From: a virus
Lineage: Duplodnaviria; Heunggongvirae; Uroviricota; Caudoviricetes
Length of the DNA: 5,537 nt
Strand: one strand, 5' to 3'
Virus record (IMG/VR): IMGVR_UViG_2602041586_000008
Location: 1-5,537 of that record
A program made the position numbers and the translations under genes. The notes below the pieces were generated by a model that saw only the letters and a list, made by a program, of their open reading frames with translations, had not been told where the DNA came from and ran no database searches. Shown here piece after piece: positions 1 to 5,537 of the stretch. Every line of letters begins with the position of its first letter. The stretch's first letter is position 1.

Positions 1-70
1 TGTGCCAACAGCGGACATTATAGATGGTATATGTAGAAAGTGAACATGCGTAGATTGTATGATTTAGCCG

Positions 71-880
71 TCACTTAATTATTGGATAACTCACACAAGT
101 ATGACCGTTGCTTATCGCATACATTTGGTTTCCCTTAAGATTTACAAATGGAAATGTCGTATACTCATAATTTATAGAGGTCATATTAAATGTAAGGAAT
201 TTATCTTCAAGTTCTAATTTTGTAGAGTGGGCAGGGTATGTTCCTTCATTTTTCATTGTGATAATAAAACCGATAGGAAAAAAATGTAAAGCACAAATAA
301 ATGCCACATGTCCTTCGTTCATAAATGCTACACTTTGAGCGGATATGTGCATTCTGTGTGGGTAAAACCAGTAGTAAATATCATGAGTTTCCTCAAAACT
401 TGAATTTTTACCCAAAACATAATCCTTTAAAGGTGTATAGAAGGGGCTATCTACGGGTTCTTTTTTACAATCTTCAACTGAAGTTGCTGATAGCACGTGC
501 CCAATCATAGCCTTAGTGAAAGATATGCTATCAAAAGGTATTCTAATGAATGGATATACATTCATACCATTCATATATCGACTTAACTGTTCTTTAAAGG
601 ACTTTGTTACATTTTCAATTGCAACATCGAGCCCACCTAATACCTTATTGTTACAGTGGCTGCAAATGGTTCTGAAATAAGAGCCATTTTTAGCATTTAA
701 TGGTTTAACTGGTTCCTGAATACCAAAAAATTCGCTAACTGTTTTCTGCAAAACAGGGCCTAAGGTTATGGCGCACTTTGGAGGAACATGATCTTTTGTG
801 AGCAAGCCATATTTCCCACAAATATTGCAATAACCTTCAGTAATGCCATTGTGCTTCCATCGTTCACTAATTTTCGTCAT
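71..880 (-). CDS. HNH/HNN-type nuclease-domain protein, 269 aa; N-terminal zinc-finger nuclease motif, C-terminal ~180 aa uncharacterised
   Basis: Complete ORF with ATG at 880..878 and a GAGGGA Shine-Dalgarno 6 nt upstream on the minus strand. The N-terminus carries CNICG...DHVPP...N...CSHCNNK, i.e. CxxC / DH / N / CxHCN, which fits the HNH (HNN-variant) beta-beta-alpha-metal fold. The C-terminal aromatic-rich region is not recognised. GC is visibly lower than in the phage core genes. Confidence 0.7.
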   Translation of the reverse strand: MTKISERWKHNGITEGYCNICGKYGLLTKDHVPPKCAITLGPVLQKTVSEFFGIQEPVKPLNAKNGSYFRTICSHCNNKVLGGLDVAIENVTKSFKEQLSRYMNGMNVYPFIRIPFDSISFTKAMIGHVLSATSVEDCKKEPVDSPFYTPLKDYVLGKNSSFEETHDIYYWFYPHRMHISAQSVAFMNEGHVAFICALHFFPIGFIITMKNEGTYPAHSTKLELEDKFLTFNMTSINYEYTTFPFVNLKGNQMYAISNGHTCVSYPIIK

Positions 881-1440
881 TTTTATTCCCTCAGTAGCAT
901 AAGCTATCTATACGTTTTTTAATCCTATCAAAGATACAACTTAACGTCAGGAAAATGATAGTGTTTATCTAAGTAATACAATTAACTTCAACGCGTGACA
1001 GTCTGCTTTTCGCTCAAAGCGGACTAGAAGGTTAGCTTGCGTCGGACTTGGCGTATTTAAAGAAGTGCTGGTGGTGACTGGTTGTTGTGTTCCATTTCTA
1101 CAGAATAAAATCACAGAAACTATACCCAATAGTTGTATTGAATCACTGACGAGACAGCTTCATATTTATCAGGACTGGTGTGCGTCTAATACAGGGGGTT
1201 GTCGTGCTGGTTCTCAAATGTGCGCTGGCTATTGCGGCTGTAATGGCAATTTATTGTCTTGCTGTTGTTCTTATGGAGCGGCTTTCTGATTGATTACATA
1301 CTGGCTAGAAAAAAGGTGTTACCTTGGTTTATCTTTGTCCGGCAAGGTGCGCTCATTAATCTTAAGTAAATTTATTGCTCAAGTATTCAGATTACTTCTT
1401 ATGGTTGAAGTCTCCTGTCAATGTAGAACCAATATATTTA

Positions 1441-1478
1441 CAAAAATGAGACCCGTCGGGGATAGCCCTGCCGGGTCT
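1441..1478 (-). terminator. Candidate intrinsic terminator for the YeaR-like gene
   Basis: 7-bp stem AGACCCG (1449-1455) / CGGGTCT (1472-1478) with a 16-nt loop. On the minus strand it is followed directly by ATTTTTG (plus 1441-1447), about 30 nt past the stop at 1508. The loop is large, so stability is uncertain. Confidence 0.45.
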
Positions 1479-1507
1479 GACTGTTAAAGCATTTTTAATA
1501 TGATCAT

Positions 1508-1846
1508 CTATTTTTTGGTGCTATAGACTTTTTCGCCCGAGAAGTCTGGAGCGACCCAAAAGTTAATATTAAACTGAGCATCATCGCTTAGTTCAACACG
1601 GTGCCAGTATTGTGGTGGGCTTGTTGCAAAAGCGCCAGCATTAATGACTACTTTTATCTCCGGTTCAGTAGCATTCTCATCAGTAAAACCATAATATGTT
1701 ACAGTGCCTTCCATTACGCACAACTGCCCAAAAACACCTGCTGCTGTATTATGATGTGTTAATAACGCTGAAGGTACGTTCTCTTTTGTGAAGAACGGAG
1801 TTGAGCGTTTGATTACCCAATCTTTAGGAATTCTCTTGTGTGTCAT
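1508..1846 (-). CDS. DUF1971 / YeaR-like small protein, 112 aa (TehB-C-terminal-like fold family)
   Basis: The ORF track gives 1508..1870, but the internal Met (MTHKRIPKD...) at 1846 is preceded by a perfect GAGGAGG Shine-Dalgarno (plus 1853-1859), so the start is placed at 1846. Motifs RSTPFF, VMEGTV.YYGF.DE..EP, AG.FA..PP..WH and FNINFWVAP match my recollection of E. coli YeaR (DUF1971). Confidence 0.8.
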   Translation of the reverse strand: MTHKRIPKDWVIKRSTPFFTKENVPSALLTHHNTAAGVFGQLCVMEGTVTYYGFTDENATEPEIKVVINAGAFATSPPQYWHRVELSDDAQFNINFWVAPDFSGEKVYSTKK

Positions 1847-1861
1847 AACCACCTCCTCAAA

Positions 1862-1884
1862 AACATGCATTATAAATGCGTGTT
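1862..1884. promoter_or_regulatory. NsrR-box-like 11-1-11 inverted repeat (candidate operator) over the -10 of the YeaR-like gene
   Basis: Plus strand reads AACATGCATTA-T-AAATGCGTGTT. Both halves approximate the NsrR half-site AAnATGCATTT as I remember it, 10/11 and 9/11. It lies 3-5 nt upstream of the Shine-Dalgarno and contains the -10 hexamer. Confidence 0.4.
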
Positions 1885-1901
1885 TTTGAGGGTTATGTCA
1901 A
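1869..1901 (-). promoter_or_regulatory. Sigma70-like promoter elements for the YeaR-like gene with an atypical 21-bp spacer
   Basis: On the minus strand there is a perfect TTGACA (plus 1896-1901) and a perfect TATAAT (plus 1869-1874), separated by 21 bp. That is longer than the usual 16-18 bp. The -10 is well placed relative to the SD and ATG (predicted start site near 1862). Confidence 0.35.
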
Positions 1902-2163
1902 GCTGTTATGAAACACATAATTGATATGTTGATTAGAGGAGAAGATATAATAAATATGGTTGTTTTTCGTATAACTATTTGTTTTACTTTTAGTTTATGC
2001 ATTCTGTGTGTTAGGAATAAGTTATTAAAGTTTAATCAAAAAATCTCGATGTAGTCCACATAGATTATTGTTACTGAACCTTATTGTGTGTATTAGTTGT
2101 GTTCTGAAATTTCAGCTTAATTATTTATGATGTATTTTTTAACGATAAATATTTTCCCAGGAT

Positions 2164-2214
2164 GCCTTTACTGTGTATATAAATAAATTATATACACATA
2201 AATAATGTAAAGGC
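2164..2214. repeat. Nested inverted repeat in an AT-rich intergenic region
   Basis: Inner perfect IR TGTGTATATAA (2172-2182) / TTATATACACA (2188-2198) with a 5-bp spacer. It is flanked by outer arms GCCTTTA (2164-2170) / TAAAGGC (2208-2214). Confidence 0.5.
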
Positions 2215-2573
2215 GTCCTTTTAGATATATCTTATCAAATGTTAATGACTTGAGTGGGAAATATGATTCCAGCAACTTATCATGTGGCTACTTTATAAAA
2301 ATAATGCCCATATAAAACAACAAGCGAAAAGGATTACGGATAAAAAAGGAGCGAGATGTGCGAACTTGTTATTTTCCATGTTTAACCACCTTAAATAATT
2401 GATGATGACGGGATGATTGCATCTGTAATGCTTTTATTGAAATGTTATGATAAAAAAGAACTTTTGCATAACATTAAAATGTAATTTATCTAATCGTTTT
2501 TAATAATAAATGTCGTATTTCTATCCTTGTACCAGCTATTTGATATGTAGTGTTTGTTCATGCTATGTGGGGC

Positions 2574-2601
2574 TTTACACCATAGCCAGTTTATTTATAC
2601 T
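2574..2601 (+). promoter_or_regulatory. Candidate sigma70 promoter for the nin-like operon
   Basis: TTTACA (2574-2579), 16-bp spacer, TATACT (2596-2601), about 60 nt upstream of the ATG at 2660. It overlaps an imperfect hairpin (GCTATG(T)GG ... CCATAGC, 2562-2586) followed by T-rich sequence, which could instead be a tR2-like terminator. Confidence 0.3.
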
Positions 2602-2659
2602 TTATTCGTCAGCCTGAACAACTGGCATCTGCTGCGCTGCGCCATCGAGAGATTGAGAA

Positions 2660-3259
2660 ATGGCGCATATACAACTGGTCAAACAAACCTCTTCTGGTTT
2701 ACTTCTCCCGGCGACGCCGGAGAGTTGCGATTTTTTGCATCAAATCAAAATAGGTGAGTGGATACACGCAGACTTTAAGCGTGTGCGTAACTACGCATTC
2801 CACAAGCGTTTTTTCAAACTCCTGCAACTGGGATTCGATTACTGGACTCCGGTCGGTGGGGCGATCACGCCTCGCGAACGAAAACTGGTATCGGGCTTCG
2901 TTGATTACCTGTGCGAATCAGTAGGTCGGGAACACACTCCAGCCCTGAGTGATGCCGCAGAGCAATACCTTAATACCGTTGCGACATGCAGAACCCGGGA
3001 TACGGCATTGCTAAAGTCGTTTGACGCTTTCCGCGAGTGGGTAACCATTCAGGCAGGATTTTACACCGAGTATATTTATCCTGATGGTAGTCGTGGGCGC
3101 AGGGCAAAATCTATCGCATTTGCGAACATGGACGAAACCGAGTTTCAGCAGGTTTATAAATCTGTACTGAATGTGCTGTGGAACTGGATCCTGTTCCGTA
3201 AATTTTCCTCTCCGGAGGAAGTCGAAAATGTGGCCGCACAGTTACTGGAGTTTGCGTAA
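2660..3259 (+). CDS. Lambdoid nin-region protein, 199 aa (DUF1367-like by memory and synteny)
   Basis: Complete ORF at about 50% GC. Its stop overlaps the next gene's start (TAATG at 3257-3261). Position is immediately upstream of a YbcO-like gene and a Q-like gene, as in many enterobacterial prophage nin regions. The family name is a recollection, not a search result. Confidence 0.8.
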   Translation: MAHIQLVKQTSSGLLLPATPESCDFLHQIKIGEWIHADFKRVRNYAFHKRFFKLLQLGFDYWTPVGGAITPRERKLVSGFVDYLCESVGREHTPALSDAAEQYLNTVATCRTRDTALLKSFDAFREWVTIQAGFYTEYIYPDGSRGRRAKSIAFANMDETEFQQVYKSVLNVLWNWILFRKFSSPEEVENVAAQLLEFA

Positions 3260-3549
3260 TGGTGGATTTACGTAAAGCGGCGCGGGGGCAGATGTGCACC
3301 GTCAGAATTCCTGGCTACTGCAATCACAATCCCGAAACATCTGTGCTGGCGCATTACAGGCTGTCGGGGACGTGCGGAACAGCGACAAAACCACACGATA
3401 TGCAGGCAGCGATTGCCTGTAGCTCATGCCACGATTTAATCGACGGGCGGGTAAAAACCAGCGATTACACCAAAGAAGAATTACGCCTGATGCATGCAGA
3501 AGGTGTTTTTCGCACACAAGAAATCTGGAGAAAGGAAGGTTATTTATGA
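3259..3549 (+). CDS. ybcO: YbcO-like (DUF1364) Cys-rich, likely zinc-binding phage protein, 96 aa; putative nuclease
   Basis: 96 aa, the same length as DLP12 YbcO. It has the MxDLRKAARG...C.VRIPG.CNxNPETSVLAH.R..G.CGT.TKP......IAC..CHD pattern with 5 Cys and His that I recall for YbcO. Translationally coupled on both sides (TAATG upstream, ATGA downstream). Confidence 0.75.
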   Translation: MVDLRKAARGQMCTVRIPGYCNHNPETSVLAHYRLSGTCGTATKPHDMQAAIACSSCHDLIDGRVKTSDYTKEELRLMHAEGVFRTQEIWRKEGYL

Positions 3550-4088
3550 TTTACCCAACAAATACAGGCAAAAGCGGGGAACACCTTCGTCTCACCACGC
3601 TGGAAAGTGTCTGGATTCAGGGAAAACTGCGCATGTGGGGGCGCTGGTCGTATATTGGCGGCGGTAAGACGGGAAATATGTTTAACCAGTTGCTGGCATC
3701 CAAAAAATTGACGAAAACAGCCGTCAATGAAGCCCTGCGCAGGATGAAAAAAGCGGGAATAGAGAAACCTGAGCTGGAAGCGTTTTTGCGAGAGATGATC
3801 AATGGCAAGCTAAAGACCTGGCTGGCGCATTGTACTGATGCAGAGGCGTTATGTATTGATAGAGTCATAAGTGAGGTGCTGGCAGAGCATCCTGGATTGA
3901 TTAGTGTCCTCCGGCAACGGTATGAAGGACGGGGGATGACTAAGCGCAAAATGGCTGAATTGCTAAATGATGCACATCCTGAGTGGTGTTTTAGCACATG
4001 CGAAAAGCGAATTGCTAATTGGTTGGCTGTTGCTGAGTATGCCCTATATATTCCCATGCGAGAATCATTTGCTCAAAAAATAGCTTGA
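3546..4088 (+). CDS. Putative late-gene antiterminator, Q-like, 180 aa
   Basis: Start placed at the internal ATG 3546, which has an AAGGAAGG Shine-Dalgarno 5 nt upstream and overlaps the YbcO-like stop as ATGA. The longer ORF from 3426 would overlap the YbcO-like gene by 124 nt with an Arg-rich N-terminus. It is the last nin-side gene before a hairpin/terminator region and the lysis gene. It has four Cys (C-x6-C ... C-x3-C). The function is assigned by synteny; the sequence family is not confirmed. Confidence 0.6.
   Translation: MIYPTNTGKSGEHLRLTTLESVWIQGKLRMWGRWSYIGGGKTGNMFNQLLASKKLTKTAVNEALRRMKKAGIEKPELEAFLREMINGKLKTWLAHCTDAEALCIDRVISEVLAEHPGLISVLRQRYEGRGMTKRKMAELLNDAHPEWCFSTCEKRIANWLAVAEYALYIPMRESFAQKIA
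4023..4052 (+). promoter_or_regulatory. Candidate late promoter (PR'-like) inside the 3' end of the Q-like gene
   Basis: TTGGCT (4023-4028), 16-18 bp spacer, TATATA/TATATT (4045-4052). An alternative is TTGATT (4085-4090), 17 bp, TGcTTCAAT (4105-4113). Neither is compelling. Confidence 0.2.
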
Positions 4089-4117
4089 TTTTTTACGCGT
4101 AAACTGCTTCAATTCCG

Positions 4118-4134
4118 GCTTTGCTTCGCAAAGC
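4118..4134. repeat. Perfect inverted repeat GCTTTGC-TTC-GCAAAGC
   Basis: 7-bp arms with a 3-nt loop, 30 bp after the Q-like stop. No T-run follows, so it is not a terminator by itself. It could be a protein-binding site or an RNA hairpin in the late leader. Confidence 0.5.
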
Positions 4135-4172
4135 TGTATCGCGAGGCGAACCAAGCGCATGAACTTTACCAG

Positions 4173-4200
4173 AACCCGCCATTGAGCGGGTTTTGTTGTT
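4173..4200 (+). terminator. tR'-like intrinsic terminator downstream of the Q-like gene
   Basis: Stem AACCCGC (4173-4179) / GCGGGTT (4186-4192), 6-nt loop, followed by TTTGTTGTTT. Confidence 0.55.
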
Positions 4201-4276
4201 TCTGGTACTGGCGAACCTGATGTTTCATTTCTGGAACGAGATTCCTGGCGGAATACCTAGAATCGAGACATTCTGG
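4200..4276 (+). repeat. Direct repeats of TTCTGG (x3) plus one TTCCTGG in the leader of the membrane-protein gene
   Basis: TTCTGG at 4200-4205, 4229-4234 and 4271-4276, and TTCCTGG at 4242-4248, all between the tR'-like terminator and the ATG at 4311. Confidence 0.35.
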
Positions 4277-4310
4277 TAAAATTGTTTTCAGTACAGGATG
4301 TGGAGGTGAG

Positions 4311-4880
4311 ATGAGAGAACTACCTAAAGATTATTTTTTAGGAGTAGATGATGAGCTCGTCGATTATCTTGAAAAACAAGGGGAAGAGACGATACGAGAG
4401 ATTCATCTTTCTAACAAAACCAATGTTGAGAATGGATACAAACTTCTGAACATTCAGATTGTTGGAATTGGTTCATCTTTTTTATTGCTGACACAGAAAA
4501 CTAATTTCGATTTTCTCACCGCCGGAATTACCACATTTACATTACTATGGACATGGTGCGCCATTTACTTGATATGTACTGGTTTATCTGTGAAGGTTAG
4601 GGGCCTGATCAATGCCCCTCCTGATCATCTATATCATGAAAAATATAAGGATATGGAGCCCTCGAGCTTTAAAATATTCGCTGATGCAGGATATTTAGGA
4701 CCTGATAAGTTATTGCCGCTTATACGAAGGTATCGCCTTGTTGACTTGAGTGATACAGCAAGAGAGTTACTGTTGGAAAATGAGAAAATCCGCACGAGTC
4801 TCGATAAAGCAAGGATGTATACCATCCTTGCTCCGGTAGCGGCGATGTTTATCTCGGCTGTTTTTTTATATGTTCAATGA
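4311..4880 (+). CDS. Low-GC predicted membrane protein, 189 aa, about 3 TM helices; accessory gene between Q and holin
   Basis: Complete ORF with GGAGG just upstream, though the spacer is short. Hydrophobic segments sit near aa 45-62 and 68-92 and at the C-terminus (MYTILAPVAAMFISAVFLYVQ), with soluble N-terminal and central regions. It is visibly more AT-rich than the flanking Q-like and holin genes. No family recognised. Confidence 0.7.
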   Translation: MRELPKDYFLGVDDELVDYLEKQGEETIREIHLSNKTNVENGYKLLNIQIVGIGSSFLLLTQKTNFDFLTAGITTFTLLWTWCAIYLICTGLSVKVRGLINAPPDHLYHEKYKDMEPSSFKIFADAGYLGPDKLLPLIRRYRLVDLSDTARELLLENEKIRTSLDKARMYTILAPVAAMFISAVFLYVQ

Positions 4881-5010
4881 CTGAGTCGGCAGAATCTCCA
4901 ACAAAAACACGACGTGTAGCAAAGTCTGTAGTACTTTGTGTTGGAGTTGGTTTTGGTGCCACGGGTTGCTGAGGTTTATTTTCATCTTGTGGCTTGTTTT
5001 TTTCAGACAT
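4849..5010 (-). CDS. Small hydrophilic Pro/Lys/Gln-rich protein, 53 aa (hypothetical)
   Basis: Internal ATG at 5010 of the 130-aa minus ORF, with a strong AAGAGGA Shine-Dalgarno 5 nt upstream. Sequence MSEKNKPQDENKPQQPVAPKPTPTQSTTDFATRRVFVGDSADSVIEHIKKQPR. Its 3' end overlaps the membrane-protein gene by 32 bp in convergent orientation. It could equally be non-coding antisense sequence. Confidence 0.4.
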   Translation of the reverse strand: MSEKNKPQDENKPQQPVAPKPTPTQSTTDFATRRVFVGDSADSVIEHIKKQPR

Positions 5011-5103
5011 AAAAATCCTCTTTGTTTGAATTGTTACTTTTGGCGATTTAACGATATCAAACACGAGTATATACCGCCAGAAGCTTAATCTGGCACTCCA
5101 TCT

Positions 5104-5130
5104 GACCCCGGCATGTCCCGGGGCTTTTTC
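5104..5130 (+). terminator. Intrinsic terminator upstream of the holin gene
   Basis: GC-only stem CCCCGG (5106-5111) / CCGGGG (5118-5123) with loop CATGTC, followed by CTTTTTC. Plus-strand only; there is no T-run on the other side. Confidence 0.6.
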
Positions 5131-5227
5131 GTTGTTAGGCTCCGGAAACATCCTCGACTTCTTGTTAGCAAGCCTGAGAGCCTGAATCTTACACTTAGCA
5201 CCATCCGAACTCTCGGAGGTGAGGCTT

Positions 5228-5537
5228 ATGAAAATGCACAATGCCCCTCATTCCTGGCCTGACTTACTGGAACTCTTACAAAGTTGGTGGCGTGGAGATA
5301 CGCCGCTGGGTGCAGTGGTTATGTCAATTATTATGGCTGGTTTGCGCATTGCCTATTTTGGCGGTGGCGGCGGCTGGAAACGAAAAACGCTTGAGATTCT
5401 GCTTTGTGGTGCTCTGACGCTGACCTTTGCATCCGCGCTTGAGTATGTCGGATGGCCTAAATCACTTTCTGTTGCCATTGGTGGTGGGGTGGGGCTGAAG
5501 TGGTTTACTGAATTTGGCCACCTGAACAGAGGTGATA
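5228..5537 (+). CDS. Lambda-S-like class I holin with MKM dual start (antiholin/holin), 3' truncated by the window edge
   Basis: GGAGGT Shine-Dalgarno at 5215-5220 and ATG at 5228. Translation MKMHNAPHSWPDLLELL...GGGGGWKRKTLEILLCGALTLTFASALEYVGW... has the Met-Lys-Met dual-start signature and hydrophobic layout of lambda S. The reading frame runs open to the window end (103 codons). Confidence 0.8.
   Translation, partial: MKMHNAPHSWPDLLELLQSWWRGDTPLGAVVMSIIMAGLRIAYFGGGGGWKRKTLEILLCGALTLTFASALEYVGWPKSLSVAIGGGVGLKWFTEFGHLNRGD

Follow-up and report, generated by a model that had tools for sequence, protein, structure and literature searches.

The stretch of DNA analysed here (the window) comprises 5,537 nucleotides (nt), positions 1 to 5,537 of IMG/VR virus record IMGVR_UViG_2602041586_000008, and belongs to an Escherichia coli lambdoid prophage of the Rac type. 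Between its Q-like antiterminator gene and a truncated holin gene lies a cassette of two convergent genes: A, which encodes a predicted inner-membrane protein of 189 amino acids (aa), and B, on the opposite strand, which encodes a hydrophilic 53-aa partner and overlaps the 3' end of A by 32 nt (Table 1). A first-pass annotation of this DNA had described a single gene in the interval. The conserved minus-strand gene B was overlooked in that description; segment 4881-5130 is no empty 3' untranslated region but holds B together with its conserved upstream box, and the unit consists of two genes.

The open reading frame (ORF) of A had been picked out correctly. It is AT-rich (G+C content (GC) 0.388, against 0.47 in the Q gene, 0.49 in 4089-4205 and 0.51 in the holin gene), and the base composition of the cassette as a whole is unlike that of its neighbors (GC 0.41 compared with 0.47-0.51 in the flanks). 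We found 104 homologs across Enterobacterales (Escherichia, Salmonella, Klebsiella, Citrobacter, Serratia, Yersinia, Pantoea, Morganella, Proteus, and Providencia), almost all of them exactly 189 aa long and with identities down to 39%, and an exhaustive search of 1.84 billion representatives yielded only 54 clusters of A at 50% identity, reaching down to ~27% identity. Across 29 diverged variants, diversity at the three codon positions is 0.37/0.28/0.62, and A is, to judge from this pattern, under purifying selection; its best-conserved parts are the first transmembrane (TM) segment, TM1, and the acidic N-terminal helix.

The three TM segments originally assigned to A are evident as three hydropathy peaks (Kyte-Doolittle, 19-residue: 1.29 at residues 42-60, 1.66 at 76-94, and 2.01 at 170-188), the first only moderately hydrophobic, and as three long helices (14-62, 68-92, and 134-188) in an AlphaFold2 model with a predicted local distance difference test score (pLDDT) of 82. 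Because Lys and Arg residues concentrate in loop 93-168 (14, compared with a single one in the short TM1-TM2 loop), the positive-inside rule suggests an N-in/C-out topology, with the N terminus and the large loop in the cytoplasm and the C terminus outside. The predicted layout thus runs from the acidic N-terminal helix through a TM1-TM2 hairpin and a basic cytoplasmic loop/helix to the C-terminal TM3.

The product of B is rich in Pro, Gln, and Lys, carries the motif DFxxxRxxVGDSA(D/E) followed by a basic tail, and is probably a disordered protein of ~50 aa; RefSeq calls a longer, 71-aa version. B proteins have in common an MS(E/Q)xNKP start, a Pro/Gln/Lys-rich middle, the motif in the form DFxxxRxxVG(D/N)SA(D/E), and the basic tail. 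We collected 98 A loci from public genomes, viral contigs, and assemblies, and B is present in every one of the 46 distinct A variants whose downstream sequence is long enough for this check, with a length of 47-64 aa and an overlap with A of 20-35 nt. Its codon-position diversity (0.40/0.32/0.58) has an excess at the third position, and we therefore read B as a translated gene; within the A-B overlap, the three codon positions of A are equally constrained (0.45/0.41/0.42). By these substitution patterns both A and B are selected as proteins, and the B motif is still conserved at very low DNA identity. AT-rich DNA does yield long ORFs by chance, and B is short and mostly unannotated; the suggestion that A and B are chance ORFs in AT-rich spacer DNA is nevertheless refuted by the conservation of both, given the fixed length of A, the reach of its homologs and more distant relatives, and the coding-type substitutions in both genes, and it retains practically no probability.

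Homologs of B retrieved by direct search are only close, unnamed relatives. A B-like convergent ORF of the same design does, however, stand beside relatives of A at 28-36% identity (loci L103/L104, L105, L106/L107, L108, and L109/L110), with a possible further example in L102; A and B share 70 nt in L105 and adjoin with no shared nucleotides in L108. Because these distant relatives of A keep the convergent partner, the unit of selection is, on sequence grounds, the A-B pair.

Conserved signals accompany both genes. Both of the intrinsic terminators by which the cassette had been described as bracketed are recovered in a scan that found two against 1.4 expected in shuffled sequences, a count that is weak evidence by itself. 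The downstream one keeps its position across diverged loci, and its stem changes are compensatory (pair 88/105 occurs as GC 13 times and CG 6 times; pair 92/101 as CG 11, GC 3, and GU 3 times). The upstream one lies in a region (4100-4205) that is 88-97% identical in loci without the cassette, and because genomes without the cassette share it, it is not the cassette's own: our analysis places it in the Q/late-promoter module, most plausibly as the equivalent of tR', at which lambda pR' transcripts stop unless modified by Q. An inverted near-copy, ACTTTACCAGAA, of the 12-nt motif upstream of A, TTCTGGTAAAAT, lies at 4157-4168, just 5' of this terminator; a similar sequence, ACTTTACCAA, precedes the terminator in Morganella locus L009, and in lambda (L112) CAGGTAAGA occurs at 9793-9801, 18 nt after tR'. 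Chance is possible for these motif likenesses.

The motif upstream of A forms a candidate promoter, P_A, with the consensus cATTcAGGTAAAAT. In 29 variants scored for promoter-like boxes, each below 90% identity, TA[AG][AG]AT occurs at -34 to -42 from the ATG of A in 24, and the box is also found in L105, a relative of 28% identity. The first-pass annotation pointed to late-promoter expression under Q control as typical of cargo in this interval; A is probably not driven by Q alone, because this promoter-like box is conserved. We considered the GGTAAAAT box as a true late promoter and rejected the idea: the box travels with the cassette whatever the Q family and also stands beside cI in L105. 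We likewise dropped a short ORF at 4282-4314, a possible leader ahead of A, because other loci do not conserve it.

On the other strand, ~40 nt upstream of B are highly conserved, with many invariant alignment columns, and 25 of the 29 variants have TGnTAT[CTG]GT at a distance of 46-57 nt before the start of B. Most loci retain the inverted repeat that follows toward the terminator, in some cases changed on both sides (e.g., CCAGT/ACTGG) with modest covariation; it may act as a hairpin in RNA or as an operator. The terminator scan found no minus-strand intrinsic terminator for B in 3900-5537; L105 has one just upstream of A. If the boxes are indeed promoters, then the transcripts of A and B would be mutually antisense over most of the module. 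In Citrobacter/Klebsiella-type cassettes (L053-L057), the sequence beyond the B promoter region looks by eye tRNA-like rather than like a terminator.

Table 1. Features of the A-B cassette and of its surroundings in the window
Feature	Position	Strand	Basis or remark
Whole cassette, ~985 bp, GC 0.41	4206-5190	.	Left and right similarity breaks
Gene A, predicted inner-membrane protein, 189 aa	4311-4880	+	ORF list, homologs, AlphaFold2 model, codon-position diversity
Candidate promoter P_A, box TTCTGGTAAAAT	4271-4282	+	-10-like TAAAAT preceded by TGG
Shine-Dalgarno sequence of A, strong, GGAGGTGA	4302-4309	+	
Gene B, 53 aa	4849-5010	-	PHROG 14506 (2.4e-31); codon-position pattern; conserved across cassettes
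Shine-Dalgarno sequence of B, AGAGGA	5016-5021	-	
Conserved leader/promoter-like region of B	5022-5062	-	Invariant alignment columns; small GTTA/TAAC hairpin
Extended -10-like box of B, TGATATCGT	5051-5059	-	Candidate promoter
Inverted repeat GCCAGA-N7-TCTGGC	5076-5094	.	Between B box and terminator
Intrinsic terminator for rightward transcripts leaving the cassette	5106-5129	+	Stem 5106-5123 plus T tail, -12.0 kcal/mol
Intrinsic terminator after Q (tR'-like)	4170-4204	+	Stem 4170-4195, 10 pairs plus T tail, -16.1 kcal/mol
Q-like antiterminator gene, left neighbor	3546-4088	+	Pfam DUF1133 3e-108; weak Phage_antitermQ match; PHROG 753 'anti-termination protein Q-like'
Lambda-family holin gene, truncated, right neighbor	5228-5498	+	Pfam Phage_holin_3_1 3.2e-21; similarity to intact phage ON470614 stops at 5498
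End of IS3-family element interrupting the holin gene	5499-5537		Sequence break at 5498/5499
YbcO	3259-3549		
DUF1367/NinB	2660-3259		
AT-rich gap	1871-2659		Between TehB-like gene and DUF1367
TehB-N/DUF1971 ORF, 120 aa	1508-1870	-	
ORF of unknown function, 269 aa	71-880	-	PHROG 21495 only

Direct alignment sets the left limit of the cassette, where similarity to loci L010, L011, L012, and L013 stops at 4194-4205; on the right, similarity to the holin modules of Gifsy-2 and SW-37 begins at 5188-5191. Its presence varies among related prophages. Some part of 4100-5240 is matched by 812 complete E. coli genomes, and the cassette is full (at least 80% of 4100-5240) in 223 of 5426; in the partial matches sampled, what is shared is limited to the first ~105 nt, the post-Q stretch including the upstream terminator. 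Among phage records, 5 of 50,697 encode A. Elsewhere, the same DUF1133 Q gene and the 105 nt that follow it carry other cargo: in Rac-type prophages that have trkG downstream, this is tRNA-Thr, tRNA-Gly, and a 96-aa ORF; in O157:H7, it is tRNA-Met with DUF6645, DUF1378, and DUF826; and in another case it is an ORF6N gene. This bears out the earlier proposal that the Q-to-holin interval holds acquired cargo. Because the same Q module is loaded differently elsewhere, the cassette is accessory, and by these comparisons the A-B pair is optional, mobile cargo of temperate phages and islands and not core lysis machinery.

One of these alternative loci, L013 (NZ_CP148453), shares 4075-4205 and 5020-5498 with the window, with an inner break at 5019/5020. 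At its positions 3105-3620, an unrelated convergent pair of 76 aa (+) and 92 aa (-) replaces A-B (window 4206-5019), and its minus-strand gene starts exactly at the start point of B, reusing the leftward promoter-like box, the hairpin, and the terminator. This arrangement suggests, from the alignment, a portable leftward expression element in the cargo site. A further copy of the A region is found in the record PP818812.1, 'Actinobacillus phage vB_Apl-pPE4', where 16434-17173 combines a 94%-identical E. coli post-Q segment with a 52%-identical A homolog, a surprising find for a Pasteurellaceae host, so that the recorded host may be questionable.

The distant relatives of the pair occupy quite different settings. 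In L105, it lies directly beside a Peptidase_S24 cI-type repressor gene, with B on the strand of the repressor and 15 nt after its stop codon, a position that we take to be that of rexAB in lambda. L106 and L108 are early regions with RecT/YqaJ/SSB or Gp157/AlpA genes, L109 is a small island adjoining gmk-rpoZ-spoT, and L102 adjoins an HSDR_N protein and helix-turn-helix regulators; in L106 and L108-L110, the pair thus sits in early regions or islands. Linkage to lysis genes across the family fails in L102, L105, L106, L108, and L109.

The first-pass annotation could assign A to no family, and our searches agree: A has no match in Pfam, NCBIfam, PADLOC, PDB, or BFVD, and its only family match is to PHROG 11870, 'unknown function'. 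B has no match in Pfam, NCBIfam, or PADLOC and matches only PHROG 14506. Database names for proteins of both families are 'hypothetical' or 'putative membrane protein', and no paper on the A/B family was found in the literature. A profile search of the PDB gave nothing below E 0.09. Pfam scans of 31 family members returned scattered sub-threshold matches (DUF2207_C, YLATT, PycTM, SLATT_3, 8xMP, and holin families) on inconsistent stretches, which we took as hydrophobic noise: those to SLATT/YLATT/PycTM occur in single relatives only, on differing stretches and at E 0.016-0.17, below the curated cut-offs, and those to holin families are at noise level in one or two relatives, A itself having no Pfam or PHROG lysis match. 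Pairwise hhalign comparisons of A were negative, with probabilities of 0.4% for lambda S, 0.15% for lambda RexB, and 0.08% for SieB of the same prophage. Neither a match to a characterized family nor a place among the core lysis components of the lineage, the distant relatives lying in immunity or early regions, was thus found for A.

In its setting, the pair resembles the cargo ('moron') genes of the Q-to-S interval, of which stxAB in Stx phages, nmpC in DLP12, and cspB/cspF in Qin are examples. Like these, it is found at the same site after the late promoter and terminator and before the holin gene, is optional among phages that share the Q module, and has an atypical base composition and one gene oriented against late transcription, and it may also have transcription signals of its own; it differs in its content, a membrane protein with a convergent small protein, and in having distant relatives at other phage sites. 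RexA/RexB of lambda likewise form a two-component prophage module with one inner-membrane partner, and the L105 pair is in the rexAB position, but RexB spans the membrane four times and RexA, 279 aa long, is cytoplasmic and encoded on the same strand, whereas the partner of A is convergent and of ~50 aa. SieB of lambda and P22, SieA of P22, and Imm of T4 are, like A, small phage inner-membrane proteins without an enzymatic domain, yet they are single-gene systems and A is paired with B. A prophage-borne membrane protein with a convergent transcript overlapping its 3' end also recalls the type I toxin-antitoxin (TA) systems txpA/RatA and bsrG/SR4 of Bacillus prophages. The toxins TxpA and BsrG are shorter than 60 aa and the antitoxins are non-coding RNAs; the A-B pair has the convergent overlapping partner but not these two features, A being 189 aa long and B under selection at the protein level. 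Finally, holins and antiholins (lambda S105/S107, P2 LysA, and P1 LydB) are small multi-TM proteins encoded beside, and transcribed with, the lysis genes; A differs from them in length, predicted topology, and sequence, and in distant relatives the pair is unlinked to lysis genes.

A role of A in superinfection exclusion, abortive infection, or host modulation, as originally suggested, is plausible, and we infer it from this context. The reading we prefer is that A-B is an antisense-coupled membrane effector paired with its antidote or regulator and that it functions in exclusion, abortive infection, or prophage maintenance/addiction; we put it forward tentatively, with a probability somewhat short of even. 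According to this model, a lysogen would express both A and B, expression from the prophage being suggested because the pair sits at cargo sites, including the rexAB position. A would be a membrane-acting effector, restrained by B as a labile protein antidote, by antisense or transcriptional interference, or by both; a product in need of restraint is suggested because a small membrane protein is tightly paired with an antisense-encoded, disordered mini-protein. Labile antitoxins are often hydrophilic and of low complexity, as is B. Rightward transcripts would end beyond the B promoter, such that the A transcript would be antisense to all of B, and B transcripts would run antisense into A. The balance could tip, for example, on loss of the prophage or when host expression is shut off by an infecting phage, and A would then damage or block the membrane, the outcome being exclusion, abortive infection, or killing of the cells losing the prophage. 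During lytic growth, at the Q-holin site, Q-dependent read-through would boost A and occlude the B promoter. The bolder proposal that A-B represents an unrecognized two-gene conflict system, in which a membrane-disrupting A is checked by a tiny convergent protein and an antisense transcript and released on phage attack or prophage loss, appears to us doubtful; such a system could have been overlooked because B is usually unannotated and A has no recognizable domain.

The state of the prophage itself bears on this. Its holin ORF is cut by an insertion sequence (IS) after about residue 90, and the copy is thus predicted to be unable to lyse, while the cassette is intact. An intact cassette in a lysis-dead prophage fits a lysis-independent role, although the IS insertion may be recent.

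Several observations weigh against the effector-antidote model. The homology searches returned nothing that points to toxicity, defense, or an A-B interaction; neither A nor B has a defense-protein match in PADLOC-DB v2 at E <= 1; and fold searches with the A model return only generic long three-helix bundles. Pantoea L006 and Morganella L009 lack the P_A box; their late terminator stops ~30 nt short of the A start, a spacing from which A looks like a purely late (Q-dependent) gene there. The promoter-like region of B can serve a different gene, as in L013, and may therefore not be specific to the pair. Moreover, without exception among the Enterobacterales loci examined (Escherichia, Serratia, Pantoea, and Morganella), the pair is placed after the late terminator and directly before the holin gene, as would equally suit a role in lysis.

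This constancy speaks for the main rival, in which A is a lysis-timing accessory: as the first late gene after Q antitermination, it would set the time of holin triggering by depolarizing the membrane or as a holin partner or antiholin, with B and the antisense transcript silencing it in the lysogen. The site is kept despite at least three antiterminator families (DUF1133, Phage_antitermQ, or PF03589 with an Ogr/Delta gene) and three holin types (Phage_holin_3_1, holin_2_1, or an unassigned 86-aa protein); Pantoea and Morganella leave too little space for A to have a promoter of its own; A is small and multi-TM, as holins and antiholins are; and late read-through at this site would raise A and interfere with B. 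However, the pair is absent from most phages that have this Q or this holin, its distant relatives are found beside cI or in early regions, well away from lysis genes, and the cassette remains intact where the holin is destroyed. A is also unlike lambda S and the Pfam holin families, and the class I-III holin designs differ from its predicted N-in, 3-TM, 189-aa architecture. Because the distant relatives sit away from lysis genes, the constant Q-holin position in Enterobacterales may instead go back to a single ancestral insertion that was then passed on by module shuffling, and we judge a lysis-timing function unlikely.

Two further alternatives seem less probable still. A-B could be a pure addiction module, a type I-like TA system that stabilizes the prophage through post-segregational killing and plays no part against phages, with the B transcript acting mainly as an antisense RNA. 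The convergent, 3'-overlapping genes, one of them for a membrane protein, are reminiscent of txpA/RatA and bsrG/SR4 as generally known, and with no terminator found for B on its strand, its transcripts should run antisense into A; the conservation of B as a protein, whose motif outlasts DNA similarity, the size of A, three times that of type I toxins, and the abutting genes of L108 leave this a slim prospect. We rate as equally improbable that A is lysogenic-conversion cargo that alters host physiology (envelope stress, ion handling, or colonization), with B as a small partner in its regulation or assembly. Cargo directed at the host, Stx toxins for example, is known from the Q-holin site, the present copy has been retained beside sitABCD although its prophage is degraded, and no defense-system model matches; yet the family is small and confined to phage and mobile-element contexts (the 54 clusters above), and the tight antisense pairing suggests a product that needs restraint.

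Prophage cargo sites are a main source of new anti-phage and host-modulating genes, and the A-B family is widespread in Enterobacterales and unannotated. New here are the A-B pair as a unit and its antisense architecture with conserved signals. If A is a regulated membrane effector, then the pair would represent a new toxin/antidote or abortive-infection design in which the antisense partner also codes for a protein, and retention of the cassette in a lysis-dead prophage would be explained; if A instead tunes lysis, then it would be a new accessory lysis regulator common to phages with unrelated holins.

The window as a whole is 99.96% identical to the chromosome NZ_OZ547461, and 4100-5240 is 100% identical to it; in that chromosome, recE, kilR, sieB, and ydaS/T/U/V-like genes lie upstream. 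In the annotation of locus L001, an ISEc52-like transposase gene directly follows the holin gene and is itself followed by sitABCD, the later prophage genes having been replaced. Rfam searches of the whole window returned two chance microRNA-like matches only, both outside the cassette region, and no tRNAs.

Toward the left end of the window, the AT-rich 269-aa ORF contains CxxC pairs and is named 'chaperonin' in RefSeq without a Pfam match; it is probably another cargo gene under a misleading name. The 120-aa protein comprises the TehB N-terminal DUF1971 domain alone, without the methyltransferase part, and its gene opposes the neighboring phage genes. The gap that follows spans 790 bp with a GC of 0.30 and has no ORF longer than 67 aa. 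Upstream of DUF1367, related prophages carry hok/gef toxin genes and IS elements, and the stretch from 2292 on is kept there.

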